This document shows positions 1 to 64,000 of a DNA stretch of 64,000 nucleotides, in pieces. The notes below the pieces were generated by a model. That model was not told the origin of the DNA and did no database searches. It saw only the letters and a program-made list of their open reading frames with translations. The position numbers were made by a program, and so were the translations under genes. The stretch's first letter is position 1, and each line of letters opens with the position of its first letter. The stretch lies in assembly GCA_041641305.1 (NCBI GenBank), contig JBEPYN010000002.1:608001-672000 (forward strand), given 5' to 3'. This DNA comes from Nitrososphaerota archaeon (GTDB lineage: Archaea; Thermoproteota; Nitrososphaeria_A; Caldarchaeales; Caldarchaeaceae).

Positions 1-239
1 TCTTCAACGTTTCGTGGACATGTGTCGGCCACTTGAACAGCTTCTTCACGGGTTAAGCCTACATCCGTCATGAGCTTCTGGACGAGGAGCTCGGCTTGGT
101 CAGGGGCCAGCTTCGCATATTTTTTGACGTATGTGTAAACCCTCGACTGGAGGGTGCTCAGTTCATCAGCTCTCTGCTCCATCAGCTTGGCGACAGTAGC
201 CATCGGTATCTCTGTTTTAGACAATATTTTACGAGCCAT
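1..239 (-). CDS. rpo4: DNA-directed RNA polymerase subunit Rpo4 (F), 3' end runs off the window
   Basis: Not in ORF track. Manual translation from ATG at 239: MARKILSKTEIPMATVAKLMEQRADELSTLQSRVYTYVKKYAKL...GLTREEAVQVADTCPRNVE. Lies directly downstream of rpl21e, a conserved archaeal gene order. Confidence 0.9.
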   Translation of the reverse strand, partial: MARKILSKTEIPMATVAKLMEQRADELSTLQSRVYTYVKKYAKLAPDQAELLVQKLMTDVGLTREEAVQVADTCPRNVE

Positions 240-242
240 CCT

Positions 243-530
243 CTACTCAACTACCCCACGGATGTGGTCTGGCAGAATGGATAGAGTTTTTCCCTCTTTA
301 CCGACCTTGACCACATAGCCTCTGCCCCGTTTCTCCACGATCACCCCTATCTTGCCGTGATACCGTCTATGTGGTGAGCCTTTCTGTACACTTGGGTCGA
401 TTGCTATAAGGACACGGTCGCCTATTTTGTAGTCCCTCAAGTAGATGTCCGGCCTGGGCCCGCTTCTCGACCCCCGGGGCTTTTTAAGGTATCCTCTCGA
501 TTTCCTACGGAAACCTTTAGACTGCGGCAT
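243..530 (-). CDS. rpl21e: 50S ribosomal protein eL21
   Basis: SKGFRRKSR N-terminus; IDPSVQKGSPHRRYHGKIG motif. Confidence 0.97.
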   Translation of the reverse strand: MPQSKGFRRKSRGYLKKPRGSRSGPRPDIYLRDYKIGDRVLIAIDPSVQKGSPHRRYHGKIGVIVEKRGRGYVVKVGKEGKTLSILPDHIRGVVE

Positions 531-573
531 GACCTGCGTCCGTTAAAGCTGTTTTAAGCTATGATAAAAGCGT

Positions 574-9538: not shown

Positions 9539-10324
9539 ATGCCCGATATCGTTGTTTGCGTCAAGCAGACGGTTGACGTTTATCAGCTGAAGCCTCATCC
9601 CGAGACTCTAGCGCCCCAGCTTTCTCAGGCCCAGTGGAAGAACAGCGACTTCGACCTGAACGCGGTCGAGGAAGCCGTCCGCATCAAGGAGAAAAGTGGC
9701 GGAAAGGTCATCGTCGTCAGCGTGGGGCCCGAGGTTAAGCCGCTTCTGGTAAGAGAGTGTCTCGCCATGGGAGCAGATGAAGCCTACATTCTCTCAGACC
9801 CTGCTCTCGCTTCTGCTGACGGCGGGGCAACTGTCAAGGCCCTGGCAGCTGTCATAAAAACAGCTTCACCGAAATGGGACATGATACTATGTGGAGAAGC
9901 TTCTCTGGACCAGAATGCTTACCAGACGGGGCCGCGTCTCGCTGAGATATTCAACGTTCCACATGTTTCATATGTGAACAAGCTGGAGGTGGGCGATGGC
10001 GTGTTGAAGGCATGGAGGACTGTCGAAGACGGTGTGGAGGTTGTTTCATGCAGCTTGCCAGCCGTGGTCACGGTCGGGTTGGAAATCAACACCCCCCGGC
10101 TACCCAGCCTGTTGATGATTAGGGCTGCGCAGAAGAAGCCTCTCAAGGAGCTTTCACTCAACGATGTTGGGCTTACAAAAGACGACCTCAAGCCAAAAGC
10201 CGAGACACTCGAGATTAAGGCTATGAAGACCGAGAGAAGAAGACAGGTTTTCGAGGGAAAGATCGAGGAGTTGGCGGAAAAACTAGCGGAAACAATCATC
10301 TCACACGGTGGTGGAAGAAAATGA
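9539..10324 (+). CDS. etfB: Electron transfer flavoprotein beta subunit
   Basis: IVVCVKQ, DLNAVEEAVRIKE, LAMGADEA, INTPRLPSL. Confidence 0.95.
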   Translation: MPDIVVCVKQTVDVYQLKPHPETLAPQLSQAQWKNSDFDLNAVEEAVRIKEKSGGKVIVVSVGPEVKPLLVRECLAMGADEAYILSDPALASADGGATVKALAAVIKTASPKWDMILCGEASLDQNAYQTGPRLAEIFNVPHVSYVNKLEVGDGVLKAWRTVEDGVEVVSCSLPAVVTVGLEINTPRLPSLLMIRAAQKKPLKELSLNDVGLTKDDLKPKAETLEIKAMKTERRRQVFEGKIEELAEKLAETIISHGGGRK

Positions 10325-11262
10325 AGACACTTGTCATAGGAGAGAAACCGGAACAAGTCATCACAACAGCCAGCTACGCAAAATCACTCAACACAGCACA
10401 AGTCGTCGCAGCGGCCTTCAAACCCTTCACAGAAAACGAGCTGGAGATGCTCGGCGGAGCAGGAGCCGAAAAACTCATCCAACTACCCGAGAAATACCTG
10501 GCATCCGGTGCCGCGGCCTCTGCAGCAGTGTTGGCGGAGCTCGTGAAAAAACTTGATCCCGACCTTGTCCTAATCTATGCGTCGAAGAAAGGTGTCGAGA
10601 TATGTGGCCGTTTGGCGCAGCGGCTTGACATAGCCTATGCATCTGAGGCCTTCGCGGTTGAGAGGGGTGAGAAAGGGTTTGTGGCTAAACGGCTTGTGAT
10701 GGGAGGTGGCTACGTGGCCACTGTTTTGCTTAACAGTAGACCCGCCTTGGCTTCGGTGAAGATATCGACATCAGAGACATCTAGGGGGCCGAAGCCGGCT
10801 GTTGAGGAATTTGACCCTAATGTCGACGCTCCGGCTGTGAAGGTGTTGGAGACCATTAAGCCTGAGAAGACACGTGTGGACCTTGAGAAAGCTGCCTTGA
10901 TTGTGGCTGTTGGCCGAGGTTTCAAGAAAAAGGAGGATTTGTCGCTGGCGGAGGAGCTTGCAAAGGTGATTGGGGCGGAGATTGGGTGCAGCAGGCCTAT
11001 ATCTGGTGACCTCAAATGGCTTGAGGAGGAGCGGCACATAGGATTATCTGGAAAACGTGTGCGACCCACCCTCTACATAGCGCTTGGTATATCCGGTCAG
11101 GTGCAGCATCTCGTCGGAATGCGTGACAGCAAAACCGTCATAGCCGTCAACACAGACCCCAACGCACCCATGGCCTCCGAGTCAGACTACTACTTCGTCG
11201 CAGACCTCTACAAAATCCTCCCCCTCACCATAGAAATTCTCAAAAAGAAACTGGGCAGTTAA
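10321..11262 (+). CDS. etfA: Electron transfer flavoprotein alpha subunit
   Basis: VAVGRG, IGCSRP, IGLSGKRVRPTLYIALGISGQVQHLVGM, AVNTDPNAP. Confidence 0.96.
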   Translation: MKTLVIGEKPEQVITTASYAKSLNTAQVVAAAFKPFTENELEMLGGAGAEKLIQLPEKYLASGAAASAAVLAELVKKLDPDLVLIYASKKGVEICGRLAQRLDIAYASEAFAVERGEKGFVAKRLVMGGGYVATVLLNSRPALASVKISTSETSRGPKPAVEEFDPNVDAPAVKVLETIKPEKTRVDLEKAALIVAVGRGFKKKEDLSLAEELAKVIGAEIGCSRPISGDLKWLEEERHIGLSGKRVRPTLYIALGISGQVQHLVGMRDSKTVIAVNTDPNAPMASESDYYFVADLYKILPLTIEILKKKLGS

Positions 11263-11265
11263 AAC

Positions 11266-11874
11266 ATGCATTACCTAACAACAGTTCTCGCTAACCAGGA
11301 TCCCGGCGGACGCAGAGGCCTCATAAAAATAAACAAGAGGCCAATGATAGAGTATGTGCTCGACTCGGTGCCCGAAGACACAGACGAAATCGTCATCATG
11401 ACCCAGCAGTGTTCGCTGAACGAGTATAGGGACATAGCCGAGGATTATGGTGCGGAGCTGTGGGACGCTGGGCCAAAGGAGCTCGACATCCGTTTCCACC
11501 TCGAGAAGCTTTTCCGCGAGAAAACATGCGACTCTGTGGTCGCCCTCTCCTGCGACACACCTCTAATCAACAGAGAGGTGGTAATGTTTCTACGCGACGT
11601 TGTTACACGATTCTCCGCAGGCATACCGCGACCAGTTTTTGACAAGCCCGAGTTCACACCCGCCTCCTACCGCGTCAAACCATTTCTCCAAGCCATGGAG
11701 CAGTATCCAGAATTGAAGATGAACGAGCTTGTGAAGCATGTTGGAAACGTGCTATACATATCGCTTCAGAGCTTCAAAATCTTTGATGACAAGCTCCGTT
11801 TTCTCGTCAGGGTTCAAACGCAGTCGGATGCTAGGAGAGCTGCTCAGATTCTTCAGTCAGTTGAGGGTGAATAG
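11266..11874 (+). CDS. MobA-like NTP transferase family protein (divergent)
   Basis: GLIKINKRPMIEYVL and LSCDTPLI patterns of the MobA fold; the usual LAGG.S.RMG loop is degenerate. Confidence 0.65.
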   Translation: MHYLTTVLANQDPGGRRGLIKINKRPMIEYVLDSVPEDTDEIVIMTQQCSLNEYRDIAEDYGAELWDAGPKELDIRFHLEKLFREKTCDSVVALSCDTPLINREVVMFLRDVVTRFSAGIPRPVFDKPEFTPASYRVKPFLQAMEQYPELKMNELVKHVGNVLYISLQSFKIFDDKLRFLVRVQTQSDARRAAQILQSVEGE

Positions 11875-18186: not shown

Positions 18187-19416
18187 ATGAAGCAGTCTTT
18201 CGTAACAGTCGAGCCGCTGGATCGAACTCCTGTCGAAAAGCAGGAGATTGAGATGGTTGAGCGCAAAGGATTGGGCCACCCCGACTACATCATAGACAGC
18301 GCTTGCGAAGAGGCGTCTCTGCTGCTTTCGCAGTTTTATCAGGCAAAGTATGGGCAGATTCTTCACCACAACCTTGACAAGGGTCTGCTCATCGGCGGGA
18401 GGGCGTATAACAGGTTCGGCTACGGCAGGCTTGAGGAGCCGATAACCATCATCATAGCGGGCCGGGCCTCGACATCTGTAAAAACTCCGACGGGCGAGGA
18501 GAAAATACCCTACAGAGAAATAATCACGGATGCTGTCAGGTCGATGATTAAGAGGAATTTCCGGTTTCTCGACTTTGACCAGCATGTAGAGCTTGAAATT
18601 CGTGTGAGAGAGAGCAGCCCTGACCTAAAGGCTGTGGTGGAGATGGGTAAGGATATGCCTCTAGCAAACGACACATCTTACGGTGTGGCGTTTTACCCAT
18701 TTACACCGCTGGAGAACCTTGTCCTCACAACTGAGAGACACCTTAACTCGCCTCAGTTCAAGTCAAAGGTGAGGGAAAGCGGTGAGGATGTCAAGGTTAT
18801 GGGGCTGAGAAAGGGCTCGAAAATAACTCTGACGGTCGCAGACGGCATCGTAAGCACCTTGACCAAGGATAGAGACCACTACATTTCGGTCAAGGAGCAG
18901 ATAAAACAGGAGGTTGAAAATCTGGCGTCCAAGCTGGCGGGCGACCATGACGTCGAAGTTTATGTGAACACCGCTGACAAATATGGGACAAACATCGGCA
19001 ACGAGGTTTTCTACCTCACCTTCACAGGCACTTCTGCGGAGCACGGGGACGACGGCAACACTGGCCGCGGCAACAGGGCAAACGGACTCATTACACCTAA
19101 CAGGCAGATGTCGCTAGAGGCCACCGCTGGGAAAAACCCCATAAGCCATGTCGGAAAAATATACAACGTCTGCGCAGGACTTATCGCCCGCCGCATATAC
19201 GAGGAGACCAAACGAGTTAAGGAGGTTTATGTCAGAATGCTCAGCCAAATAGGGAGGCCGATCAACGAGCCGCTATCAGTGTCTGTGCAAGCCATTCCCG
19301 AGGACAAGATGGACATCGGCTTGGTGAGAGATATCGAGAGCATTGTCTACGACGAGGTCGCAGACATCAGACGCGTCACCGAGTTGATTATCTCGCGGCA
19401 GGTGTCGGTCTTCTAA
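18187..19416 (+). CDS. mat: Archaeal S-adenosylmethionine synthetase
   Basis: EMVERKGLGHPD, HHNLDK, ANDTS, GEDVKVMG, GTSAEHGDDG..GRGNR, AGKNPISHVGKIYN. Confidence 0.96.
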   Translation: MKQSFVTVEPLDRTPVEKQEIEMVERKGLGHPDYIIDSACEEASLLLSQFYQAKYGQILHHNLDKGLLIGGRAYNRFGYGRLEEPITIIIAGRASTSVKTPTGEEKIPYREIITDAVRSMIKRNFRFLDFDQHVELEIRVRESSPDLKAVVEMGKDMPLANDTSYGVAFYPFTPLENLVLTTERHLNSPQFKSKVRESGEDVKVMGLRKGSKITLTVADGIVSTLTKDRDHYISVKEQIKQEVENLASKLAGDHDVEVYVNTADKYGTNIGNEVFYLTFTGTSAEHGDDGNTGRGNRANGLITPNRQMSLEATAGKNPISHVGKIYNVCAGLIARRIYEETKRVKEVYVRMLSQIGRPINEPLSVSVQAIPEDKMDIGLVRDIESIVYDEVADIRRVTELIISRQVSVF

Positions 19417-20135
19417 AAATGTGCATCGAGTCCTTTTTGTTTTCTCAAAATCTCCATACATGTTCGAGGCGTTAGGCACCTGTATTCGAGGTTCATGGTT
19501 TTCATCAGGCTTAGGGCGCGTTTAGTTGCTGAGGGAGCTGCTATTATCCCCCGGGGTCTTCTGCCCAGCTCTTCCTCTAAGCTTTCGAGATAACGTGCCA
19601 GCTGCTTGATGTCCTCCGGTGTGGCTGATCGCCTTTTCAACTCGACCACCGTGAATACCCCGTTTTTGTCCACGCCGAAGACATCGACTTTGCCGGCTCT
19701 CCCGGCGGCCCTCTCCTTAGCCACTGGCCTGAACCCTTCTTCAACAAGCTCGGGCCTCAGTAGAACCGCCTTCTTCATCTCGGCCTCTGAAGCATACATA
19801 ACCATCTCAGCCTCATCCACCAGCTGGTAAACACTGACCTCAGGCTCCCCATGAAACCTAATCTTCAGCACTTCGTTGGCTCGCGCAGCCCTTAGAACCA
19901 CCTCGTCATCCTCTGTGTATAGCTCGATTTTTGAGCCGCTTGGCTGCCAGTTAACAGGCTCATATCCCGAGGGCCTGTGGACCAGCACGCTTCCGTCACG
20001 CTTTATTATGATAAGCCTCTCGCCTTCACCCAGCTCCGACGAAGCACGTCCCACATATGAGATACTGCATCTCCCCGCTATCACAGCAACATGGCCCGCG
20101 GCTATTGCCTGCCGTATCTTCTCGGCCCACTTCAT
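19413..20135 (-). CDS. nucS: Endonuclease NucS/EndoMS
   Basis: YVGRASSEL, IIKRDGSVLVH, PVNWQP, D...VELKR...QLARY nuclease motif; C-terminal PIP-like QKGLDAHF. Confidence 0.95.
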   Translation of the reverse strand: MKWAEKIRQAIAAGHVAVIAGRCSISYVGRASSELGEGERLIIIKRDGSVLVHRPSGYEPVNWQPSGSKIELYTEDDEVVLRAARANEVLKIRFHGEPEVSVYQLVDEAEMVMYASEAEMKKAVLLRPELVEEGFRPVAKERAAGRAGKVDVFGVDKNGVFTVVELKRRSATPEDIKQLARYLESLEEELGRRPRGIIAAPSATKRALSLMKTMNLEYRCLTPRTCMEILRKQKGLDAHF

Positions 20136-31628: not shown

Positions 31629-32604
31629 GGAGCTCGGCCTATGCATCAGAAGCGTAGACCTTACCCCGCAGCAGTTCATCGAAGTAGCTAAACGCGCGGA
31701 GGAGCTGGGTTACAGCTCGCTCTGGATGACTGAGGAAATGGCACGTGCCTCACCGATAATGCTTACGGCAGCCGCTCTCCACACCCGGCGGATAAAACTT
31801 GGAACAGCCATACTCAACATCTTCGCAAGAACACCCATGTCCACCGCCATGGAGGCAGCAACCCTCCAAGAACTCTCACAGGACCGTTTCATCCTAGGCC
31901 TCGGCGTAGGAGGCCCAGACATAACTCGCAGAGGACATGGAGCAGACATCTCCAACCCCGTGCAGAAAATGTCAGAATACATAGAGATAGTGAGAAAATT
32001 TCTCACAGGTGAGCGGCTTCAATACAGCGGCAGACACTACCGTGTCGACGGCGTCCGGCTCTGGCTAAAGAATCCTCGGCCCACCCAAATCTACGTAGCC
32101 GCACTAAACCCAGGGATGCTTACACTCGCCGGGGAAAAAGCAGACGGCTTAATTCTCAACCTCTTCGACCCACGCGCAGCCGACTACGTCAACAAATCAA
32201 TAAACAAAGGCCTCAAAAACTCACACGACCCAAACAGGCCTTTCAAAAAAACATCATTTGTTTTGGCAGCTGCTTCAAGGAAACAGGATTCTCTCGCAGC
32301 TCTAAAGCGGTCTGTCGCATTCTACCTTAGCTCACCAGCTTATCGGAGAATAATGCGTGAAGCCGGACACAGAGATGCTGTTGAAAGATTTGCAGCAGCT
32401 TTGGAGACACGGGGCCGCGACGCCGCATTTGAGTCCCTAGACGAAGATGTAGTCGAAAGTGTGTCAATTTTCTGTGACGGAGACATCGGTGAGCAGCTGA
32501 AAAGATATCGTCAAGCAGAAGTTACGCCCATCATTTATCCGCAGCCCCGCCCAGGCAACGAGTATCAAGACATAATGGCTATCGCTTCAGCGGCCGTCGA
32601 GTAA
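31615..32604 (+). CDS. LLM-class oxidoreductase, probably F420-dependent
   Basis: AEELGYSSLWMTE, LGTAILNIFARTP, RFILGLG, IYVAALNPGM, ADG. Confidence 0.88.
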   Translation: MVKDEELGLCIRSVDLTPQQFIEVAKRAEELGYSSLWMTEEMARASPIMLTAAALHTRRIKLGTAILNIFARTPMSTAMEAATLQELSQDRFILGLGVGGPDITRRGHGADISNPVQKMSEYIEIVRKFLTGERLQYSGRHYRVDGVRLWLKNPRPTQIYVAALNPGMLTLAGEKADGLILNLFDPRAADYVNKSINKGLKNSHDPNRPFKKTSFVLAAASRKQDSLAALKRSVAFYLSSPAYRRIMREAGHRDAVERFAAALETRGRDAAFESLDEDVVESVSIFCDGDIGEQLKRYRQAEVTPIIYPQPRPGNEYQDIMAIASAAVE

Positions 32605-37727: not shown

Positions 37728-38774
37728 TCACACCACAGGCACAAACCAGACATGTGAAAAACGTTTAGACAACTCTCGCAACACGTCTATCCGCAGCCCA
37801 GCCACAAGAACGCCGTCAAACCCCGTGAAAGAACCCAGCCTCTCAAGCAGCACATCCTCACCATCCAAAACAGAAACCCTCACACGCCTACCCTTCAAAG
37901 CATTCACAAACCTCTGACCAGCAGTCTCCGAAAACGCCACAACAAGAAGCCTAAACTCTCTTCTATACTTTCTCGAAACCTCCCTCACCTGCGCCAGCAC
38001 AGAGGCCTCAGCTCTATAAACCGTTTTACGCATCCTTGTGTAGAGGTTGTTGAGAAGAGGCGTGTTTCTATGCATCTTTAAAGCCTTCACGGCGTCGAGA
38101 TGCTCCTGATAGAGAATAACATCGCGTGGAAAACAATTCATAACAATTTCGTTATGACCGTAGAGGATGGCCATTTCCGCCAGGGACCAAGCCTCAACCG
38201 CCTCCGACAAAACCTTCGACAGAGAAGCCATCTCAGCCAGCTCAGGAGACTTGAAAAATTTGGCACCCAGCTTCTCGAGAACGGGGCTAGGTTTCTCGGA
38301 TGAACACCATGCGGGCAAAAGATTTCTTGTTGTCGAGACTGCTCCGATGTAGCTTGCCTCTGAGGGGTCTGCTTTGGAGCTTCGTGTGAAAAGGTTGAGG
38401 AGGTGTCTGCATTCGCCGGGCTTGGTCAACCCCGCGATGGTTAACCGCTGTGCTTCGAGGAGTTTTTCCCCAACTGTTTTGACGAGGTTTTCAGCAGAGT
38501 GTAGGGTGTCGCGGCCTTCTTTAATTGTGTTGACTGTTATCCAGACTTCTTGGTAGCTGTTTTCGGGTTGGCGTGTGATTAGGAGCTTGTTTTCGGCGCA
38601 TAGCTTGATGAATTCTTGCTTGGATATTCCACGATGTAGGCTGGGGTCATATTCTGCTGCTTTTTTCTCGACGTAGGGGTCAGGTGTGTAGAAGATAGTC
38701 TGAAACCCATGTTTCGCCAGCTTAGCAGCCGCAGGTATGCCTGTCTCATCCATCGACGCCAGCAGAACCTTCAT
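37728..38774 (-). CDS. Highly divergent UDP-glucose/GDP-mannose dehydrogenase-like protein
   Basis: MKVLLASMDETGIPAAAKLAKHGF and SPELAEMASL echo the family N-terminus and central helix; GxGxxG, catalytic Lys and GGxC are not recognisable. Confidence 0.5.
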   Translation of the reverse strand: MKVLLASMDETGIPAAAKLAKHGFQTIFYTPDPYVEKKAAEYDPSLHRGISKQEFIKLCAENKLLITRQPENSYQEVWITVNTIKEGRDTLHSAENLVKTVGEKLLEAQRLTIAGLTKPGECRHLLNLFTRSSKADPSEASYIGAVSTTRNLLPAWCSSEKPSPVLEKLGAKFFKSPELAEMASLSKVLSEAVEAWSLAEMAILYGHNEIVMNCFPRDVILYQEHLDAVKALKMHRNTPLLNNLYTRMRKTVYRAEASVLAQVREVSRKYRREFRLLVVAFSETAGQRFVNALKGRRVRVSVLDGEDVLLERLGSFTGFDGVLVAGLRIDVLRELSKRFSHVWFVPVV

Positions 38775-41161: not shown

Positions 41162-42686
41162 GCCTGTCAAAAACCTCGATTACTCTACCAGCCGCTCTCC
41201 TAACCTGTCTCAGATACTCGTCGTAAATCTTCTGGTAGACGGTTCTCGTTATTCTGCCTGCTTTATAGTCCTCGGCTGAGCGGCCTAGGGCTGATATGAT
41301 TGACAAAAGTTCTTCAACCGTTTTCTCTATCTGTGGATATGTTTGAGCCATCTCGGATAGTTTCTTAAGCTCGAGAAGCTCTGTGCGGAGAGACTTGACC
41401 GCTTCATCGCTGACCTTGGTTGTCTTAAGCGGCTTGTCCCCGGGCTTGAGCGTCTCCAGCTCCTTTAGCAGCTTGTCCAAAGCGTTTTCAAGAGATGTCT
41501 GAGCCTTCTTCAGCTGCGGAGACACCGTCCTCCTCGGAGCCGCCGTAGTTTTTACCGCGAGGAAACCGGCCACAACAATTATCGCGGCCAGCAAAACCGC
41601 TGGAACCGGCAGAGTCGAAGCCGGCGAATAAGTGATGGAGACTGTATCACTCCCTGTCAGATACTTGTTCTGATACATGAACGTGATTTCTCTTCTGTTG
41701 TTGTCGAGGACTTTGAGGCTCCAAGGCTCTGTCTCGGCGGATACCTGTGATGCTGGTGGCGTTTTTAGTGTTACGTAGAGGGTTGTGAAGGATGCGTTAA
41801 CGATGTTTGGGAACTTGACCTTCACCCTGTCCCCAGCACGTTCCACAACATCTTTAGCAACATATGTTATGTCTATCCGTGTTCGCTCGTTTCTACCTAT
41901 GCTGTAGAGGAATGTGATGTCGAGGGTGCCTGTCTCAGGTGACCAGCTTGTGCCGAGACTGAAGATGCCTGACTTGGCTGATACAGGTGTCGCGTCTCTT
42001 CCAAGCCGCAGGGATATGGAGTTCATAGACGTGTCCCCGAGGTTTCGCACATACATGGAGATGGAGACGGTGTTTTGCTCGAGGTCGTAAAGGAAAGTGG
42101 CATCCTCCACCGTGTAGCGGAGAAGGTCAGGTGCGTCGAAGGAGATTGAAAGCGTCTTAAACTGTTTAAGCGGTATGTCTTTCACGACACCTTCCGCAGA
42201 TGTTTTGTCGCCGGAGATGCTCAGCTCCGCTCCAGAGACAGAGTTTATCGACGGTGTTCCATCCGCGGAGAAGGTTACAGATATTTCCCTTAAGTCTGTG
42301 TCTCTGATCGGGTTGCTGGGCAGTACGAGCAGATACTTTCCTTGACTAATTTCCACGAGCATGTCCCGCCAGACGGTCACAACCGAAACAGTTCTCCCGC
42401 TCCATCCATTTTCGGGAGAAACCTCCAACCACAAAACATCATCCACTCTCTCGACAAACCTGCCCCGCTCATTTAGCAGATAATATCCTGCGAGGTTTTT
42501 CGCCGAGTCAAGCGGATACCCGAGCTTAACCGTCTCAGTCGCCGAGTTCACAGGCACCGTGTCCACCACGAAGACCAGACCACCGTCGGCAACATGTATC
42601 CGCCTCGAGAAACTATCCTGAGCCGAGACAGATGCAGCGGACAAAACCGTCGCCAGAATCAGCAGAAAAACCGCGTATCTCTTCAC
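41148..42686 (-). CDS. Type I membrane protein (signal peptide, beta-rich ectodomain, one TM, helical cytoplasmic tail); ribophorin-I-like architecture
   Basis: MKRYAVFLLILATVLSAASVSA signal peptide; TM LPVPAVLLAAIIVVAGFLAV; about 130-aa amphipathic C-terminus. Confidence 0.7.
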   Translation of the reverse strand: MKRYAVFLLILATVLSAASVSAQDSFSRRIHVADGGLVFVVDTVPVNSATETVKLGYPLDSAKNLAGYYLLNERGRFVERVDDVLWLEVSPENGWSGRTVSVVTVWRDMLVEISQGKYLLVLPSNPIRDTDLREISVTFSADGTPSINSVSGAELSISGDKTSAEGVVKDIPLKQFKTLSISFDAPDLLRYTVEDATFLYDLEQNTVSISMYVRNLGDTSMNSISLRLGRDATPVSAKSGIFSLGTSWSPETGTLDITFLYSIGRNERTRIDITYVAKDVVERAGDRVKVKFPNIVNASFTTLYVTLKTPPASQVSAETEPWSLKVLDNNRREITFMYQNKYLTGSDTVSITYSPASTLPVPAVLLAAIIVVAGFLAVKTTAAPRRTVSPQLKKAQTSLENALDKLLKELETLKPGDKPLKTTKVSDEAVKSLRTELLELKKLSEMAQTYPQIEKTVEELLSIISALGRSAEDYKAGRITRTVYQKIYDEYLRQVRRAAGRVIEVFDRLMRT

Positions 42687-42735
42687 GACGCCTCAACCAC
42701 CCACCTAACACTCAGCATTTAAATCAATCTTTAAC

Positions 42736-42840
42736 CGGGCCCGGTGGGACTTGAACCCTGTCGGCGGGGCACTTCCGTGCCGCTGCTCACGACCTACGGC
42801 TTAGGAGGCCGCCGCGCTATCCATTCTGCGCCACGGGCCC
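42736..42840 (-). tRNA. tRNA-Arg(CCT) with a 30-nt non-canonical intron (42758-42787) in the T stem, position 51/52
   Basis: GGGCCCG acceptor, GCGGC-CTCCTAA-GCCGT anticodon arm; T stem GTG|intron|GG-TTCAAGT-CCCAC; BHB helix GTCG/CGAC. Confidence 0.93.
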
Positions 42841-42929
42841 GGCGGTGAAAAGTGTTTTGATTGATTTTAACCTATTGATGGTGGGGCGGCATAATGGATT
42901 AAAGGACGGAGCTGTGCTTGGTGTGTGGA

Positions 42930-43415
42930 ATGTCTGAGGAGGGGTCTGGTTCTCTGGAGGAGTTGAGGGCGCAGAATAGGGAGTTGGTGGAGCGGCTTTC
43001 GTATGCGATGGCCGAGGTGGAGAACATGAGGCGTGTGATGGAGAAGGAGGTTAGGCGGGCTGAGCAGGCGGCTGCCGAAAGGCTTCTGAGGAAACTGATA
43101 ACCGTGTATGAGGACTTGGAGAGGGTGGTCAAAGGCCTCGAAACATCGGCTGCTCCTCCAGCTCTGGCACAGGCTGTCGAGATGGTGTACCGCGAGCTCC
43201 AAAACATCCTCGCATCGGAGGGTGTGGAGAAGATGGATGTCGTCGGCAAAGAGTTCAACCCCTTCGACCACGAGGCCGTCGAATACATCGACTCGGACAA
43301 CGTCACCGTCGACACCGTGGCCGAGGCCCTGTCCAACGGCTACCGCATGGGAGACAAAATTCTAAAACCACCTAAAGTCAAGGTCGCGAGGCCCAAGAAG
43401 CAAAGCGGCGATTAG
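42930..43415 (+). CDS. grpE: Nucleotide exchange factor GrpE
   Basis: AEVENMRR, FNPFDHEAV, GYRMGDKILKPPKVKV. Confidence 0.95.
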   Translation: MSEEGSGSLEELRAQNRELVERLSYAMAEVENMRRVMEKEVRRAEQAAAERLLRKLITVYEDLERVVKGLETSAAPPALAQAVEMVYRELQNILASEGVEKMDVVGKEFNPFDHEAVEYIDSDNVTVDTVAEALSNGYRMGDKILKPPKVKVARPKKQSGD

Positions 43416-49322: not shown

Positions 49323-49355
49323 GATAAATAAGAGATAGCCAGTATTTTACGCAGC

Positions 49356-50090
49356 ATGATAGACGTCCACTGCCACCTCACCGAGGAACCCCTCCTATCA
49401 AACCTCGACAAGGTCATAGAAGAGGCGAGGCAATCGTCTGTGAAGGCGATAATCACCTCAGGTATAGGCCCCGCGGATTGTGAGAAAGTGTTGAGCATAG
49501 TTGACGGTGTCTATGTTTATGGCAGCCTCGGCATCGAGCCCTACTCCCTCGAGGGATATGAGCAGGTGATTGAACTGATCATGAGGAACAGGAAACGGGT
49601 TGTGGCCGTCGGCGAGGTTGGGTTGGACTACTACTGGGGCAAGAGGGAGACAAGGGAGATGCAGGCAAAAGTTTTCAGGGATTTCATCGAGCTTGCGAAG
49701 AGCCTCGACCTTCCGCTGGTAATTCACTCGAGAAGCGCGGGAAAATATGCTCTCGACATCCTCTTCGAAGCTGGTGCTGAGAGGGTTGTGATGCATGCTT
49801 TCGACGGCTCTGCAGGCGAGGCAGCCCGAGGCGCGGCGAAAGGCTACTTCTTCTCTGTTCCCCCATCTGTTGTAAGGTCTGAGCAGAAGCAGAAGATGGT
49901 TAAGCGACTGAGGCTGGAAAACCTTCTACTGGAGAGCGACGCCCCCGTCCTCGGCCCCGAGAGAGGCGTGGTAAACAAGCCCTCAAACATCGTAATCTCC
50001 GCCAAAGCCATCGCATCGCTCAAAAACATACCACTCGTGGAAGTCGTTGAGGAGACAACAGAAAACGCTAAAAACATATTCAGGATATAG
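49356..50090 (+). CDS. tatD: TatD family DNase
   Basis: IDVHCH, AVGEVGLDYY, IHSR, MHAF, LLESDAP. Confidence 0.95.
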   Translation: MIDVHCHLTEEPLLSNLDKVIEEARQSSVKAIITSGIGPADCEKVLSIVDGVYVYGSLGIEPYSLEGYEQVIELIMRNRKRVVAVGEVGLDYYWGKRETREMQAKVFRDFIELAKSLDLPLVIHSRSAGKYALDILFEAGAERVVMHAFDGSAGEAARGAAKGYFFSVPPSVVRSEQKQKMVKRLRLENLLLESDAPVLGPERGVVNKPSNIVISAKAIASLKNIPLVEVVEETTENAKNIFRI

Positions 50091-50111
50091 AGGCCGAATG
50101 ACGGTGAAGAT

Positions 50112-51098
50112 GTGTTGTCAGCGGCAGATGCGAAAAACCTGCCATGGGTAGAAAAATATAGGCCGAGAAGGCTCGATGACGTGGTTAATCAGGAGCAGGT
50201 TGTCGAAGCTCTGAAAAACATAGTCGCTACAAAGAATGTGCCTCACATGCTTTTCGCGGGGCCGCCGGGAACTGGTAAAACGGCGACGGCTCACGCGTTT
50301 GCACAGGACCTTTTCGGCCCACGCTACATAGAGGATGGCCACTTCATCGAGATAAACGCCTCCGATGAGAGAGGCATCGAAACCATCCGGGAAAGGGTCA
50401 AGACGTATGCGCGCTCAGTCCCCTTCGGAGGCATCGGGTTCAGGCTACTCCTCCTCGACGAGAGCGACCAGCTCACCGACGCGGCCCAACATGCTTTCCG
50501 CCGTACCATGGAACAGTTCTCGACAACATGCAGATTCATACTCGCAGCCAACTACAGCAACAGAATCATAGAGCCGATACAGTCAAGATGCGCTGTCCTC
50601 AGGTTCAAGCCTCTCAGCAAAGACATGGTGGCCACGATGCTCAAAAAAATAGCCGCGGCCGAAAACCTCCAGCTCGACGACGCGGCCGTCGACGCGATCT
50701 ACGAGTTCTCCATGGGCGATATGAGGAAAGCCATAAACATTCTCCAGTCATCAGCATCAATATCAAAAACAGTTGACTCTAAGACTGTGTACAACGTCAT
50801 GGGTGTGGTGAGCAGAGGCGAGGTGATGAGAATGCTTCAGCTTGCACTCGATGGAAAGTTTTCCGAGGCCCGTGGACTACTCCGTGAACTGATGTATGTT
50901 CAGGGATACCAGGCGACCGACATCGTCTCATCTATAGCCCGTGAGATACCTTCTCTCCCAGTCTCCGAGCAGGATAAGCTGCGTCTGATGGATCTGATAG
51001 GCGAGACCGACTACCGCATATCCGAGGGCGGAACACCGGAGGTTCAGCTACAAGCCTTTCTCGCCAAGCTTGCGTCGATCAAAAGGTCTGGGGCTTGA
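50112..51098 (+). CDS. rfcS: Replication factor C small subunit
   Basis: PWVEKYRP, GPPGTGKT, NASDERGI, LDESD, IQSRC, GDMRKAIN; no intein. Confidence 0.97.
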   Translation: MLSAADAKNLPWVEKYRPRRLDDVVNQEQVVEALKNIVATKNVPHMLFAGPPGTGKTATAHAFAQDLFGPRYIEDGHFIEINASDERGIETIRERVKTYARSVPFGGIGFRLLLLDESDQLTDAAQHAFRRTMEQFSTTCRFILAANYSNRIIEPIQSRCAVLRFKPLSKDMVATMLKKIAAAENLQLDDAAVDAIYEFSMGDMRKAINILQSSASISKTVDSKTVYNVMGVVSRGEVMRMLQLALDGKFSEARGLLRELMYVQGYQATDIVSSIAREIPSLPVSEQDKLRLMDLIGETDYRISEGGTPEVQLQAFLAKLASIKRSGA

Positions 51099-52324
51099 CG
51101 CAGCTCTGGACAGAAAAATACAGACCAAAGAAAGTCTCTGAAATAGTTGGTAACAAGGAGGCTGTCCAAGCTTTCCTCGACTGGATGGCGGGATGGGAGA
51201 AGGGTAAACCATCCAAGAAAGCTGTTCTCCTCCACGGGCCGGCCGGCGTGGGGAAAACCTCCCTTGTGCACGCCTACGCATCTGAGAAAGGATACGAGGT
51301 GATAGAGACCAACGCAAGCGATTTCCGGACACGTGAAAACATCGAGAAAATCGTTGGAGCAGCGTCGGGGATGGCTTCGCTAACCTCGGGCCAGAGAAAA
51401 ATCATTCTCGTCGACGAGGTCGACGGCATAGACGCGAGAGCGGACGCGGGAGCTGTCACAAGCCTCGTAGAAATCATATCCAAAACACATGTCCCCGTAG
51501 TTCTCGTCGCAAACGATCCATGGGACCCGAGGCTGGCCCCACTAAGAGAAGCCTGCCTGATGATACAGTTCAGGAGAATACCCAAGCCATCAGTTGCGGC
51601 ACATCTCAAGAAAATAGTCGCGGCTGAGAATGTTAAGGTGCCGGAGGATATTCTCCGCAGGATTGTGGAGAACTCTGAGGGAGACCTACGGTCAGCTATA
51701 AACGATTTGCAGATGGCTTCGGCGGCTCTCGAGATGGGTCTGGTGACGGCTCCACGGGATAGAAAAGACGAGATTTTCACGGCCTTGGCAACGATCTTCA
51801 ACGCGAAATCCTTCAACACGGCGCAGGAGGCCGCGCGCAACATCGACATCGACCACTCGGAGCTGATGCAGTGGATACTCGAGAACGCGCCGCAGCAGCT
51901 CTCGCCAACAGACTTGGCCGAGGCCCTTGAAAACCTCGCCAAAGCAGACCTCTACCTCCAAAGGATAAACACTAGACAGAACTGGCAGTTCCTCCGCTAC
52001 GCAGTCCCTATCATGACAGCGGGTGTAGCACTTTCCCGAAAAACATCACCATCCAAATTTGTCAAGTTCACTTACCCCGAGGCAATCAAGTTTCTCGGCC
52101 GCACAAAGTCCATGCGTGAATCACTTGCCAGCATAGCGGAAAAAGTTGGGAAGAAGCTTCACATGTCGGCGCGGAAAGCCAGAACCGAGATGATACCCTA
52201 CCTCAAGATAATCATGTCAGGCGACGGTGAAGAATTGGCCGAGTATTTTGAGTTGTCCCCTGCTGAGGTTCAGTTTCTACGCGGCGGCGAGGTGAAGAAG
52301 AAGGGTGCTAGGCGCCGTGGCTGA
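51095..52324 (+). CDS. rfcL: Replication factor C large subunit
   Basis: WTEKYRP, GPAGVGKT, NASDFR, DEVDG, GDLRSAINDLQ. Confidence 0.95.
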   Translation: MTQLWTEKYRPKKVSEIVGNKEAVQAFLDWMAGWEKGKPSKKAVLLHGPAGVGKTSLVHAYASEKGYEVIETNASDFRTRENIEKIVGAASGMASLTSGQRKIILVDEVDGIDARADAGAVTSLVEIISKTHVPVVLVANDPWDPRLAPLREACLMIQFRRIPKPSVAAHLKKIVAAENVKVPEDILRRIVENSEGDLRSAINDLQMASAALEMGLVTAPRDRKDEIFTALATIFNAKSFNTAQEAARNIDIDHSELMQWILENAPQQLSPTDLAEALENLAKADLYLQRINTRQNWQFLRYAVPIMTAGVALSRKTSPSKFVKFTYPEAIKFLGRTKSMRESLASIAEKVGKKLHMSARKARTEMIPYLKIIMSGDGEELAEYFELSPAEVQFLRGGEVKKKGARRRG

Positions 52325-53465
52325 GGCCTTTGACGAGCTCCTGCTCTAATAGCTGCGCCGGTATGCCGGGGAGATAGACATAGGTTTTCCTGCCTCTCGC
52401 GCCCTCGCTCTTGACCGAGAGCCGTAGAAACCCGAGGTCCTGCAGCTGCTGAAGAATCTCCCAGAAACTTGTGTAGCCTTTCGCCTCCTGCCGCAGCTCT
52501 TCACAAACCAGCTTATAGATCTCGTAAACATCCTGCGAAGTTACGCTGGCCTTGTTTCCCAGCATGCTTCGAGCCGTCGAAAGCAGCACAAGCCGTTCAT
52601 CGGGCCTGAGGTATGCCAGGTTTTCGCGGCGAATGGTTGGATAAACGCTTGCGAGAGCCTTTCTCACATGCTCAGCCGTCACCACCGAGCTGCCCTCAGC
52701 CTCAGCATATTTTCCCGACCTCCAGAGAAGGTCGATAGCGTATCTCGCATCCTTTCTCTCAGAAGCAACCTCCGCCAAAAAATCAAGCACCTCATCGCTG
52801 ATGGCGTTTTTCATAAACGCCTCAGAGGCCCTGTAGCGGAGAATCTCGAAGAGCTGGTCACGGGTGTATTCTTCGAGGTGGATGCTGTTACCTCCCATGC
52901 CGCTCAGCGTCTGCCCATCAAGCCTCTCAAGAAAATCTGCTCCACGGAAGATTAAAATGAGTGAGACAAGAGCCCCTGCCTCTATGTCCTCGCTGCTCCT
53001 TGTGAGTAGGTAGATTGCACCCGCCCCCTCTTCTGCGATAAGGGCCTCCACCTCATCGAGGCAGAGGATAAGCCGCGTCTTGTTGAAGCGGAGAAAGTTG
53101 ACGATGATCTCGAGTATCTCCTCGTCTGAGTAGCCTCTTCTCGGAATCTCTACTCCCAAGACGTCGGCTGTTTTGCGGAGAGCTGTGTAAAGAGACTTGT
53201 GTATGCGGCAGTTTACGTGGACAAACCTGATTTTTCTACCCACGCCGACGGCTCGTCGCTCAATCTCTTGGCCGAAAAGTTTGGCCAAGCTCGTCTTTCC
53301 CGTACCCACCGCACCCCATAAAAACACGCGCACATGAAAAGGCTGCTCATCCCTCAACAGCGATGAGAAAAAGGAGAAGAGAAGCTCCAGCTCCCTCTCG
53401 CGGAAAAGAAGCCTATCAGGCACATACTCGGGAGAAAGCTTCTCCTCATGGCTAAAAACAGACAT
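52308..53465 (-). CDS. cdc6: ORC1/Cdc6 replication initiator
   Basis: LSPEYVPDRLLFRE, GAVGTGKT, VNC, LDEVE, DARYAIDLL, C-terminal winged helix GARGRKT. Start trimmed to ATG 53465. Confidence 0.94.
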   Translation of the reverse strand: MSVFSHEEKLSPEYVPDRLLFRERELELLFSFFSSLLRDEQPFHVRVFLWGAVGTGKTSLAKLFGQEIERRAVGVGRKIRFVHVNCRIHKSLYTALRKTADVLGVEIPRRGYSDEEILEIIVNFLRFNKTRLILCLDEVEALIAEEGAGAIYLLTRSSEDIEAGALVSLILIFRGADFLERLDGQTLSGMGGNSIHLEEYTRDQLFEILRYRASEAFMKNAISDEVLDFLAEVASERKDARYAIDLLWRSGKYAEAEGSSVVTAEHVRKALASVYPTIRRENLAYLRPDERLVLLSTARSMLGNKASVTSQDVYEIYKLVCEELRQEAKGYTSFWEILQQLQDLGFLRLSVKSEGARGRKTYVYLPGIPAQLLEQELVKGLSHGA

Positions 53466-53500
53466 TCCCAAGAAACTCCTACGCAGCAGCTGACATAAAA

Positions 53501-53542
53501 GAGCACCTCTTACGTACAGCAGCTGTACGAAAAAGGTGTCTC
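53501..53542. repeat. Imperfect inverted repeat between tRNA-Val and cdc6
   Basis: GAGCACCT-CTTA-CGTACAGC-A-GCTGTACG-AAAA-AGGTG-T-CTC, with an 8-bp perfect core. Confidence 0.7.
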
Positions 53543-53553
53543 TGAGCATCTCA

Positions 53554-53627
53554 TGGGCCGGGGCGGACTTGAACCGCCGACCTCCGCCGTGTGAGGGCGG
53601 CGTCCTACCAGGCTAGACCACCGGCCC
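53554..53627 (-). tRNA. tRNA-Val(CAC)
   Basis: GGGCCGG/CCGGCCC acceptor, CCGCC-CTCACAC-GGCGG, GGTTCAAGTCC. Confidence 0.97.
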
Positions 53628-53680
53628 CCTGTTTCCCGCTATTGGTAAAGCTTTAAGTCTTACCTTGTGGAAGAAAATTC

Positions 53681-53914
53681 ATGGCAATTTCTTTGACGGA
53701 GATCGTCATAATCGCCGCGATTATCCTGATTGCCATCTATATTCTGCCGGGTAAGCTTCCGAAGCTTGCGAAGTCTTTGGGTGAGGCGAAGCGCGAGTTT
53801 GAGAAAACTGCTAAGAGGGAGGAGGTTTTGGAGAGAGCCCGTGAGCTGGGTATCGATGTGACGGGTAAAACGCTTGAGGAGATCGAGGAAGAGATACGTC
53901 GGCACGGTCACTAG
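53681..53914 (+). CDS. tatA: Twin-arginine translocase TatA/E subunit
   Basis: One TM helix followed by PGKLPKLAKSLGEAKREF amphipathic helix. Confidence 0.9.
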   Translation: MAISLTEIVIIAAIILIAIYILPGKLPKLAKSLGEAKREFEKTAKREEVLERARELGIDVTGKTLEEIEEEIRRHGH

Positions 53915-61877: not shown

Positions 61878-63525
61878 CTCGTAGGTCGACGAGGGCGGGA
61901 ACACCTCTCAACACGTCGTCGACAGCTCTTCTCAAAACCTTGGCAGCCTCCTCATATGTTTCCGCTTGGTAAGATGAGAAACCGATACCGCGTCCAACTG
62001 CCTGGATGTCAAGAGGCTCGGGGAAATCAACACCTTCAACCTTTTTCTCAAAATCTGAGAAGCCTACTTCGGCCATGCTCTTCTTCACATCATACCAGCA
62101 TCCGTCGTTGAAAACAGCCACTAGGATAGGCAGATGATACCATTTTGCCAAAGCCGCGGCTGCGACGGGATTGTTGAAGACGAAGCTGCCGTCGCCGAGA
62201 ACAACGGCTACAAAGGCCTGTGGGTTAGCCATCTTTATTCCGAGGGATGCGCCCAGCCCCCATCCCAGAGAACCGCCCGGAGGCTCCCCGAAATAGGTTC
62301 CCGGCGTGTCGAAGACAAGGTAGTCAGGTTTTAGAGAATACTCGTTGACTATGACCGAGTTTTTTGGGAGCACTTCGCCGAGAAGGTGAGAGGCTAATCG
62401 CTTCGTCAGCGTGTTCCCGAATTTATCTTGGGTAAGGTCTTCTTCGAATGCTTTCCGCCAGTTTCTCCAATCCCTCTCAGCAGCCGCCTTTCTCTCCTCA
62501 AGCAAATCTTTCCTAACCTCTGCCGAGCCGCTCTCAAACAATTCTAGAAGCTTCTCGAGAAAAAGGGAAGTCTCTGAATAGACTGCTTCATCGAAGCCAA
62601 ACCCCCAGACATTCATCCTCGTCTTTAACGGGTCGAGGCCGACTGAGACCCTGTAAACATCTGTGGGCCACTTTTCTGCAGGCAGCCAGGGGACATCCGA
62701 GTCCAGCACCAAGATACAGTCAGCCCGCCCAATCTCAGCAGGCGCGGAGAAGATGCTTGTGTTGGGGAAGTTGACGTAGTCGGCGACGGCGTAGTTAACC
62801 CGGAGACACAGCCTCTCAGCCAACCTCTTCAACAAATGGAAAGCCCTGGCATTTCTTCCAGCAGACCTCGTCAAAACAATTGGGTAGCTTGCTGTGGAGA
62901 GTTTCTCGGCGATTCTCTTGACTACTGAAGGATTTGGTGATGGCGGCTCGGAAACGATGGGCCGGCGATGTTGAACATCTTTCTCCGGCTTGGCGAGAAA
63001 ATGTTCGCGGTAAATTCCGAGGTAGACAGGGCCCTGTGGAGGAGACATGGCGACCTCGGCAGCCCTCGAAACCGCTTCAGGGATCTCCGCAGTTTCGCAG
63101 ACCACATAATCCCATTTGACAAACTGTCTCACCAAGCCGCGTATGTCGCGTACATCTTGGCCCCAGTGGACGCGGATTTTTCGAGACCCGCTGTATCCCT
63201 TGGACGAGTATGAAGTCACGCCCGAGATGAGGATGATGGGTATCTCAGCTGTGTATGCGTTGAAGAGGTTGGGTAACGCGTTTGCCACGCCTGGGACGGT
63301 GTGAACCATGACCGCGGAAGGCTTCTCACCTACGAGGCTGTAGCCGTATGCTGTCGAGACAGCCGTGGTCTCGCTCAGGCAGACAACCATCTCAGGCCTC
63401 TGCAGCGGGCTTAGCTGCATGTAATCCAGCAGAAGACCAGAGTACTCCGTCCCAGAGTTGATGAAAAACTTCTCGACACCGGTTTTCCTGAGAGAAACAA
63501 GCAGCAAACCCCCACCCGACAACAT
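61861..63525 (-). CDS. Thiamine pyrophosphate-binding enzyme (acetolactate synthase/benzoylformate decarboxylase-like)
   Basis: GVEKFFINSGTE, CLSETTAV, HTVPG, GSLGWGLGASLG, GDGSFVFNN. Start trimmed to ATG 63525. Confidence 0.9.
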   Translation of the reverse strand: MLSGGGLLLVSLRKTGVEKFFINSGTEYSGLLLDYMQLSPLQRPEMVVCLSETTAVSTAYGYSLVGEKPSAVMVHTVPGVANALPNLFNAYTAEIPIILISGVTSYSSKGYSGSRKIRVHWGQDVRDIRGLVRQFVKWDYVVCETAEIPEAVSRAAEVAMSPPQGPVYLGIYREHFLAKPEKDVQHRRPIVSEPPSPNPSVVKRIAEKLSTASYPIVLTRSAGRNARAFHLLKRLAERLCLRVNYAVADYVNFPNTSIFSAPAEIGRADCILVLDSDVPWLPAEKWPTDVYRVSVGLDPLKTRMNVWGFGFDEAVYSETSLFLEKLLELFESGSAEVRKDLLEERKAAAERDWRNWRKAFEEDLTQDKFGNTLTKRLASHLLGEVLPKNSVIVNEYSLKPDYLVFDTPGTYFGEPPGGSLGWGLGASLGIKMANPQAFVAVVLGDGSFVFNNPVAAAALAKWYHLPILVAVFNDGCWYDVKKSMAEVGFSDFEKKVEGVDFPEPLDIQAVGRGIGFSSYQAETYEEAAKVLRRAVDDVLRGVPALVDLRVKADF

Positions 63526-63629
63526 ATCTATCCAGATTGGCTTAACAGCGTCAAAAAGTTTTCGAAAAGTTGGAATAACGTATAAAACACGCCCAATAGA
63601 CATCGTGCCCGGGTTAAACAAGTTTGGTG

Positions 63630-64000
63630 ATGCGTAGAAACGGTCGCGGGAGACGTTTCGGCTACATCATAGCCGTTTTCCTCGTTCTGCTGCTATTCAG
63701 TGGTCTTTTCATCAGTTCGTTCATAAACATCTGGCTAAACGTGATGGAGTTTGGAGACCTCTTCATCCGGCCATTCTATTTCTCGTTAATCGGCGGCCTA
63801 ATCCTCTCATTCATCGCCCTTTTCCGCCTCGACTTCGTCTCACGCAAATCCCTAGTCATCTGGTCCTTGCGCACATTCCTAGTTCTAATGCGTGGCGGCT
63901 TCGCCCCACGAATTCTCGACTTTGACAGGTTCAGACTATCTCTACAGACTTTCCTCGCCTGGCAGTTCACGAAACTGCTCGCGGGCACATTCATCTTCTC
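63630..64000 (+). CDS. UPF0182-family membrane protein, 5' part
   Basis: Not in ORF track. Manual translation MRRNGRGRRFGYIIAVFLVLLLFSG...NIWLNVMEFGDLFIRPFYFSLIGGLILSFIALFRLDF..., open to the window end. Confidence 0.7.
   Translation, partial: MRRNGRGRRFGYIIAVFLVLLLFSGLFISSFINIWLNVMEFGDLFIRPFYFSLIGGLILSFIALFRLDFVSRKSLVIWSLRTFLVLMRGGFAPRILDFDRFRLSLQTFLAWQFTKLLAGTFIF

Follow-up and report, generated by a model that had tools for sequence, protein, structure and literature searches.

The window analysed here is a stretch of 64,000 nucleotides from the genome of a Nitrososphaerota archaeon of hot springs (contig JBEPYN010000002.1; G000:C2:608001-672000), which carries, among others, the genes etfA, grpE and cdc6 and, on the minus strand, nucS (endoMS), coding for a mismatch-specific endonuclease. 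Along its plus strand, on which polarity is always read in this work, patches rich in G or T (keto bases, K) are interspersed with patches rich in A or C (amino bases, M), and the changes from one to the other fall inside genes as well as between them. Sixty-two above-threshold blocks of about 130-300 bp each are spread over positions 1-64000, as part of a field that covers the whole genome.

The genome holding the window (hereafter G000; 1.66 Mb, 99% complete, 1,802 genes called by a self-trained model) has Candidatus (Ca.) Caldarchaeum species as its nearest named relatives. The closest genome used for comparison, that of Ca. C. subterraneum (contig of 1,680,938 bp), has 90% amino-acid identity to it. 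In the first-pass annotation of the window, the patches had been counted by hand, and recounting gave exactly the same figures, both for the third positions of etfA (Table 1) and for a minus-strand gene at 37728-38774, with 44/60 A+C at 37801-37860 and 44/60 G+T at 38521-38580.

Table 1. Skewed blocks and genes discussed in the text (window positions; residuals are given for keto/amino choice on the plus strand).
Feature	Position	Strand	Observation
A/C-rich block, etfA 5′ end	10289..10520		28/30 third positions A/C; mean residual -0.31
etfA gene	10321-11262	+	Pfam ETF/ETF_alpha
G/T-rich block, middle of etfA	10744..11042		31/40 third positions G/T; residual +0.28
A/C-rich block, etfA 3′ end	11098..11294		28/30 third positions A/C; residual -0.32
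nucS/endoMS, mismatch-specific endonuclease, candidate filter	19413..20135	-	PF21003 and PF01939; its presence in the window is a coincidence
A/C-rich blocks in luciferase-like gene (+)	31768..32271		residuals -0.30, -0.31
A/C-rich blocks in minus-strand gene 37728-38774	37746..38300		44/60 A+C; residuals -0.39, -0.30; includes the strongest block of the window
G/T-rich block in gene 37728-38774	38307..38685		44/60 G+T; residuals +0.27, +0.30
A/C-to-G/T switch over divergent gap before grpE	42489..43132		A/C 42489-42723 (-0.28), G/T 42893-43132 (+0.36); polarity of ordinary gaps
A/C-rich 5′ end of cdc6 (-), gap with tRNA-Val, G/T-rich tatA-like gene	53364..53914		block of -0.32; polarity of ordinary gaps

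A field of keto/amino choice at synonymous sites

Throughout G000, synonymous sites up to about 150 bp apart tend to agree in their choice between keto and amino bases. When 243,533 four-fold sites were compared with within-gene codon shuffles, the autocorrelation was 0.099 at distances below 30 bp, 0.049 at 61-90 bp and 0.026 at 121-150 bp, with a shuffled value of 0.027. At the same sites, the autocorrelation of the purine/pyrimidine axis (R/Y) is about 0 and that of the strong/weak axis (S/W; G or C versus A or T) is close to its own shuffle, and the two-fold C/T and A/G boxes of the genome behave alike. The keto signal is therefore clearly above the codon-shuffled controls that had been suggested as a check, which refutes chance. 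Effects of amino-acid composition or codon context are also excluded, as the signal persists, gene interiors included, once codon box, neighbouring codons and location within the gene have been modelled. Two 40-kb stretches, which between them take in most of the window, show an excess of 0.045-0.050 (z about 24-26).

The description of this pattern as an oscillation has to be abandoned, as the autocorrelation has no negative lobe; likewise, a test for periodicity over G000 found no spectral peak, the power climbing and then flattening at 600-1600 bp. The pattern consists, instead, of patches that are aperiodic, extend over the whole genome and are bound to DNA position. Strand biases above 50:1 are reached at synonymous sites, at scales that are averaged out by whole-genome skew plots. 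A simple compositional feedback was rejected as the source of the patches, since the coupling is far weaker at first and second codon positions than at third positions. Additionally, the third positions of G000 show a second, shorter component at codon lags 1-4 (0.10-0.14 up to 12 bp, falling at 15 bp), the size of which is near that of the patches of 5-6 bp reported for NucS repair in mycobacteria.

Polarity belongs to the position in the DNA

It had been proposed that the process behind the patches is strand-asymmetric and locally bidirectional, independent of both gene strand and replichore, and this has been borne out by the polarity of intergenic gaps and by a two-sided response to AT content. 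As to its nature, repair or recombination is the reading favoured by the evidence. Gaps longer than 10 bp are A/C-rich on their left and G/T-rich on their right by about 0.1, an effect that fades over about 200 bp and is the same for divergent, convergent and tandem gene pairs. Non-coding DNA carries the same gradient as the coding DNA that flanks the gaps. By contrast, overlapping convergent genes show no switch, and the field continues across the change of strand (r=+0.23). Inside genes, the difference between AT content on the left and on the right predicts keto choice with a slope of 0.73±0.03 (0.54±0.05 in gene interiors), and this response is two-sided in 15 of the 17 segments of 100 kb, on both gene strands and without a replichore sign. 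Locally diverged stretches inside genes also behave as weak switches with the handedness of ordinary gaps, independently of their AT content (0.107±0.038).

These properties separate the field from two well-known kinds of asymmetry. Replication-associated skew has one sign per replichore and switches at the origin and terminus, whereas the mean residual per 100 kb of G000 stays within ±0.02, that is, no skew is seen at the replichore scale. In transcription-associated asymmetry, the sign follows the coding strand, whereas in G000 convergent and divergent gaps are the same and the sign can reverse within a single operon (see below). Motifs that might anchor the switches were also sought and rejected: GGCC scores negative (z -11.6), and weak sources are limited to A-tracts and AT-rich words.

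Reversed polarity at exchanged cassettes

Exchanged cassettes have the reverse of the polarity of ordinary gaps, with G/T on their left and A/C on their right. The most detailed case is a restriction-methylase and brxL module (RM-brxL; G000 C2:206001-211076), in which an Eco57I-like restriction-methylase gene is followed by brxL. The proportion of G/T at third positions is 84-97% over the first 700 codons, about 40-60% in the specificity region and 0-11% in what follows, brxL included. Over all positions, the G+T content of the arms is 0.68-0.72 and 0.14-0.34, with four-fold skews of 0.5-1.0, and the amino-acid composition is pulled in opposite ways in the two arms. The skew ends near the borders of the module. 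In G/T and A/C fields, the shifts of C/T and A/G boxes are equal in both directions (-1.87/-1.78 and +1.62/+1.58 ln odds), and in brxL both boxes are saturated (121 C to 0 T; 96 A to 2 G). On the S/W axis, the shift is at most 0.35 ln odds, compared with 1.2-2.5 on the keto axis, and the GC content is nearly unchanged.

Two other copies of RM-brxL, in different genomic contexts, show the same pattern, one of them nearly as strongly and one more weakly on the left; one comes from a Ca. Caldarchaeum genome and the second, on a metagenome contig, is 73% identical to that of G000. As the middle domain has only 37-54% amino-acid identity and no match at the DNA level, while the arms have 70-97% identity, the specificity domain is the part that has been swapped. 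The arms are 82-95% identical only to a copy in another genome. The two-gene module occupies different sites in Caldarchaeum and recurs across Thermoproteota and Nanopusillaceae. It is predicted to be a mobile defence unit, of a reduced BREX-like or a type IIG kind, whose specificity domain can be exchanged.

Among the strongest 600-bp windows of G000 there are further pairs with G/T on the left and A/C on the right. At the five arrays of clustered regularly interspaced short palindromic repeats (CRISPR), the left-minus-right values are 0.46, 0.54, 0.63, 0.39 and 0.15, for a random standard deviation of 0.10 and an ordinary-gap mean of -0.11; the left flank is G/T-rich at all five, and reversed polarity was counted for four of them. 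Mirror pairs are present even where the flanks are housekeeping genes, and a CRISPR array of C. subterraneum agrees (+0.27 left, -0.28 right). The comparison of arrays with ordinary gaps thus indicates that swapped non-coding cassettes are opposite in handedness to unswapped spacers. A glycosyltransferase cluster, a pilin-like cluster and a gene for a 2,640-residue surface protein have the same handedness as the CRISPR flanks, the pilin-like and surface-protein labels being based on translations read by eye. No mirror arms were found at the hsd and rfb cassettes of E. coli.

Change between species and strains

The patches had also been thought to keep a fixed position. This is partly correct: about 83% of the field is common to G000 and C. 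subterraneum, but only roughly 35-45% is kept in congeners at saturated divergence, and differences between species are clustered. The keto/amino differences between G000 and C. subterraneum occur in strand-coordinated runs, with an autocorrelation of 0.17 at 1-2 codons and about 0.06 at 6-20 codons (0.03 in the shuffle), while the direction of S/W differences between these genomes has an autocorrelation of about 0. Coordination with transitions is likewise seen for A/T and C/G transversions, and it extends to a closer pair with 24% four-fold divergence (0.33±0.10 and 0.19±0.06, respectively). Furthermore, the covariance across genomes is 0.046, while 0.024 would be expected from shared ancestry alone, which means that new substitutions follow the existing field. 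The field is, consequently, written by an active process. At the four-fold sites compared between G000 and C. subterraneum, A/C and G/T exchanges (7,473) nearly reach the number of transitions (7,951) and far exceed C/G (2,995) and A/T (1,655) differences. Insertions specific to G000 relative to C. subterraneum (seven cases) showed no clear pattern, and the polarised rates derived from a three-genome comparison were set aside because of too few events and parsimony bias.

Close strains are recombinant mosaics, in which adjacent single-nucleotide polymorphisms (SNPs) agree in direction by 79 to 54 (340 SNPs from a few assemblies). As a separate observation, one public assembly is 100% identical to G000 over 36699-53578 of the window, and another has only 3 differing sites over about 36.1-49.2 kb and about 0.5% difference elsewhere; this near-identical stretch around dnaK suggests a recent sweep or a large recombined block.

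NucS and the distribution of the signal

The product of the nucS gene of the window has the N-terminal PH-like and C-terminal nuclease domains of the NucS/EndoMS family, and matches the NucS of P. abyssi (2vld) with an E value of 1e-50 and EndoMS (5gke) with one of 9e-47. Its motifs YxGRA, EPVNWQP and D-x13-E-x-K are intact and, judged by motif spacing, it retains the catalytic D, E and K and the mismatch-binding R and W, residues which have been named for these enzymes (PMC4838380). By analogy with the enzymes of Thermococcus, Corynebacterium and Mycobacterium, from which its specificity is carried over, we infer that it is a candidate filter of keto-keto mismatches. MutS_I was not found in G000, and MutS was not found in the five genomes searched.

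All lineages were compared with one pipeline, on samples of 12-100 kb, and in Caldarchaeales the signal was called present at z of at least 2.5. On this basis, the background signal is present in 16 of the 18 Caldarchaeales genomes with nucS, most strongly in Caldarchaeum and its family, and stays within ±0.003 in all 13 genomes of the order in which nucS was not found; an apparent exception among the latter proved to have nucS at a contig end. This contrast, which was partly a prediction set before the data came in, has the same direction in three within-family comparisons, while histone, reverse gyrase and uracil-DNA glycosylase do not separate the genomes with and without signal. Outside Caldarchaeales, six nucS-less genomes are flat and 6 of 14 nucS-positive ones are weakly positive. 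When analysed in the same way, E. coli, Chloroflexi and many archaea lack the signal.

Some further observations concern these genomes. Reverse gyrase was not found in seven Caldarchaeaceae genomes (G002-G005, G007, G011 and G013) and is present in G000 and C. subterraneum; the copies of Terraquivivens are about 120 residues shorter. In two genomes (G037 and G058), it is the S/W rather than the keto axis that is autocorrelated at synonymous sites (0.019-0.020, z about 8).

A proposed mechanism: strand-polar biased gene conversion

The swapped RM domain, the CRISPR flanks and the mosaic strains point indirectly to recombination, and we consider it likely that the skew is linked to it. More specifically, we give a probability of about 0.55 to the skew being the footprint of a strand-polar, keto/amino biased gene conversion with NucS as its filter. 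EndoMS/NucS prefers G/T, G/G and T/T mismatches and has little effect on C/C, A/C and A/A (PMC4838380), a specificity that coincides exactly with the keto/amino axis and makes the enzyme a candidate for such a filter. In M. smegmatis, incoming alleles that form G/T, G/G or T/T mismatches are recovered over 500-fold less often, in a nucS-dependent manner (PMC11551767), and NucS suppresses recombination between diverged DNAs (PMC5290159). Additionally, nucS is needed for gene conversion in Haloferax (PMC11276520).

DNA ends are resected from 5′ to 3′. With such resection, the heteroduplex of the left arm would pair the recipient plus strand with the donor minus strand, and that of the right arm the reverse; the pairing of the arms would be the same for ends-out replacement and for gap repair. 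If keto-keto mismatches were resolved against the donor while amino-amino mismatches were left to segregate, left arms would drift to G/T and right arms to A/C. Cassettes swapped repeatedly under virus pressure, such as the RM specificity domain, CRISPR arrays and genes for glycans and pilins, might thus acquire kilobase arms near saturation and become centres of G/T-to-A/C switches, whereas AT-rich or diverged spacers, where donor fragments would end or strand exchange would stop, would give rise to A/C-to-G/T switches. Both kinds of switch together could generate the 100-300 bp patches of the window. RadA has a preference for GT-rich DNA, of which a literature search gave no confirmation. 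In a toy forward simulation, which bears on sign and axis and not on real magnitude, keto falls from 0.61 to 0.43 across the fragment while S and R stay flat, and no skew appears without rejection or with random ends. No published description of this mechanism was found in our literature search, most subscription papers being outside its reach.

Several results speak against this proposal. The nucS contrast amounts to about three independent losses, since kin are not independent, and two of them are confounded with GC content. The signal is faint or lacking in eight of the 14 nucS-positive Thermoproteota outside Caldarchaeales, mirror skew is missing from the RM-brxL homologues of Caldivirga and Sulfolobus tengchongensis, which both carry nucS, and no link to nucS was found at the background level in nine Actinomycetota samples of 20-40 kb. 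Conversely, a nucS-less Terraquivivens genome (G022, 99% complete) has a strongly A/C-skewed brxL island (L319:280-3802), in which third-position G/T is 0.09-0.25 against a baseline of 0.51 and the G+C content of third positions (GC3) is 0.36 against 0.51; from this foreign GC3, carry-over from a donor is plausible, and a cause independent of NucS is equally so. In G000 itself, only about a quarter of what can be predicted of the field is accounted for by AT gradient and gaps together (r2 of 0.012 versus 0.043). Among close strains, two dense tracts of differences (window 22449-22647 and 26478-26613) are mixed in direction; these tracts, of 135-200 bp and about 10-15% divergent, are each found in single assemblies, are slightly nearer to C. 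subterraneum than to G000, and may be short interspecies imports or assembly chimeras. Lastly, no strong strand bias accompanies heteroduplex resolution in S. acidocaldarius (PMC3367456).

NucS alone is, therefore, insufficient, and a second, lineage-specific factor is needed. This could be a high rate of recombination relative to mutation, or discrimination between donor and recipient, and a weak strand bias in heteroduplex resolution, like that of S. acidocaldarius, could also be this factor.

Alternative explanations

The rival that survives best, unlikely as we consider it, is the deamination of single-stranded DNA at hotspots of breakage or recombination, where C>U and A>hypoxanthine changes in resected 3′ tails would make the tail G/T-rich, in a kataegis-like manner, and NucS might only help to fix the lesions. 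It predicts G/T on the left and A/C on the right wherever breaks are frequent, as at CRISPR arrays and the RM domain, and it would agree with the stronger signal of those nucS-positive genomes in which reverse gyrase, an indicator of higher temperature, also occurs. However, C deaminates far faster than A. A much larger response would thus be expected in C/T than in A/G boxes of G/T fields, and the reverse in A/C fields, whereas the two responses are equal and both boxes saturate in brxL. Transversions are coordinated as well, and equally hot lineages without nucS lack the background signal. In favour of this rival, one thermococcal NucS cuts DNA containing U and hypoxanthine (PMC7343888).

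Slightly less probable is an origin in replication, in which those parts of repair patches, or of Okazaki fragments phased by chromatin, that are rich in errors would be filtered by PCNA-bound NucS, the new strand keeping only A/C errors. The scale of the background, about 100-200 bp, resembles that of archaeal Okazaki fragments, described in the literature as "much shorter than in Bacteria", and the association with nucS and the dependence on AT gradients would fit. EndoMS, together with strand-specific errors, is also known to produce a T/G-rich leading strand in C. glutamicum (PMC6159521). Nevertheless, the lack of replichore-scale skew is against such an origin, and the two-sided response seen nearly everywhere would require forks moving both ways at every locus. 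The saturated arms of 2 kb bounded by a mobile module and the reversed polarity at AT-rich CRISPR arrays would also be left unexplained.

Selection on the sequence itself, for histone positioning, avoidance of hairpins in mRNA or DNA, or translation speed, seems improbable to us. The partial conservation of the field in saturated relatives speaks in its favour, and residues conserved in distant genomes weakly predict the third-position skew nearby. By contrast, inverted repeats are not depleted beyond what local composition predicts, which rejects hairpin avoidance, the coupling is mostly among free third positions, the polarity is the same in non-coding DNA and on both coding strands, and the amino acids of a defence protein are changed in opposite directions within one operon. 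The signal is also lost in sister lineages that bear histones. The earlier suggestion of a chromatin-positioning signal written in wobble positions is not supported for similar reasons, as histones occur in the checked genomes with and without signal, the polarity extends to non-coding DNA and the pattern has no periodicity.

Still harder to sustain is mutation associated with transcription, for which AT-rich spacers would have to hold both sense promoters and cryptic antisense ones. Coding strands are, in fact, G/T-rich over the first ~200 bp of genes, and the weak switch points at A-tracts and AT-rich words would suit such promoters, but convergent gene ends show an equally strong effect, the sign reverses within the co-oriented RM-brxL operon and at CRISPR arrays, and the equal response of C/T and A/G boxes argues against it. 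Finally, although the counted windows had been picked by eye, a product of chance, amino-acid composition or codon context has practically no probability left, as z still exceeds 20 relative to synonymous shuffles once context is controlled for, and E. coli and many archaea give no signal.

Neighbouring genes

The minus-strand gene at 37728-38774 codes for 348 residues without a Pfam match and adjoins a glycosyltransferase-4 gene and DUF354. A stretch of 18 kb contains the genes for PCNA and the two RFC subunits together with cdc6 (window 35848-36618 and 50112-53465), and nucS lies at 19413-20135. A replication origin beside cdc6 was considered and rejected, as the skew does not turn there and no match resembling an origin recognition box was found near the gene with the patterns used. 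Outside the window, the 16S rRNA gene, of which there is one copy, has a length of 3,146 bp (G000:C2:678829-681974), compared with a model of 1,478 positions, and contains about 1.7 kb of insertions, which are probably introns.

Relation to known systems and significance

The known elements that most resemble the field are GRINS, described in 2021 (PMC8256042), which have intense, correlated GC and TA skews with abrupt flips, are strongest at third positions, shift amino acids between Gly/Val/Cys/Trp and Pro/Thr/His/Gln, and are tied to gene conversion. In G000, GC and TA skews are also positively correlated, strongest at third positions and accompanied by an amino-acid shift, and the RM arms exceed the GRINS intensity threshold (mean absolute GC and TA skew >0.15), the window blocks being shorter and weaker. 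However, the skew of G000 is genome-wide, archaeal, found in single-copy DNA and subject to a fixed rule of handedness. Neither the extreme arms nor the window blocks show the duplication that defines GRINS (>500 bp at >80% identity within the cluster or genome): by self-BLAST, repeats make up about 1% of G000, the coding repeats listed are weakly skewed (at most 0.15), and arms and window blocks are single-copy. The skew of G000 is, therefore, not a member of GRINS.

GC-biased gene conversion, known from eukaryotes and proposed for bacteria, is, like the process proposed for G000, a fixation bias that arises from mismatch-specific repair of heteroduplex, is strongest where recombination is frequent and can alter amino acids. 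In G000, by contrast, the axis is keto/amino rather than strong/weak, the bias is strand-polar and its sign changes across the exchange. In C. glutamicum, an enzyme of the same family produces a bias in the same keto direction, the EndoMS-dependent T/G bias of the leading strand (Takemoto et al. 2018, PMC6159521), and in a polymerase mutator the loss of endoMS abolished the strand preference of C>T and A>G changes; that bias, however, has the scale of replichores and derives from replication errors, whereas that of G000 has a scale of 0.1-3 kb. The bidirectional strand asymmetry of human CpG islands (Polak and Arndt 2009, PMC2817419) likewise has an origin-like switch that radiates from non-coding elements regardless of gene orientation, as does the replication skew of bacteria, but in G000 the range is hundreds of bases where theirs is up to a megabase, AT-rich DNA is the source and exchanged cassettes carry the opposite sign. 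A survey from 2026 considers archaea to have reduced strand-specific mutation or repair, and NucS to be unable to act strand-specifically (PMC12999951).

GRINS are common in polyketide synthase clusters of actinobacteria, which use NucS. The GRINS paper left their mechanism unknown, mentions neither NucS nor mismatches nor archaea, and regards the skew as a cause of conversion (PMC8256042). We tentatively propose, as a possibility somewhat short of even odds, that biased gene conversion has a second, polar form in prokaryotes using NucS, which acts on the keto/amino axis and would be the common cause of the archaeal skew patches described here and of actinobacterial GRINS. If this were true, the open question of GRINS would gain a testable mechanism, and the arms of recombination could be read as a map written into the genome, so that recombination hotspots and virus-driven cassette swaps would be readable from a single genome. 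Moreover, a non-adaptive force would have been recognised that distorts analyses of codon usage and dN/dS and rewrites the amino acids of defence proteins.

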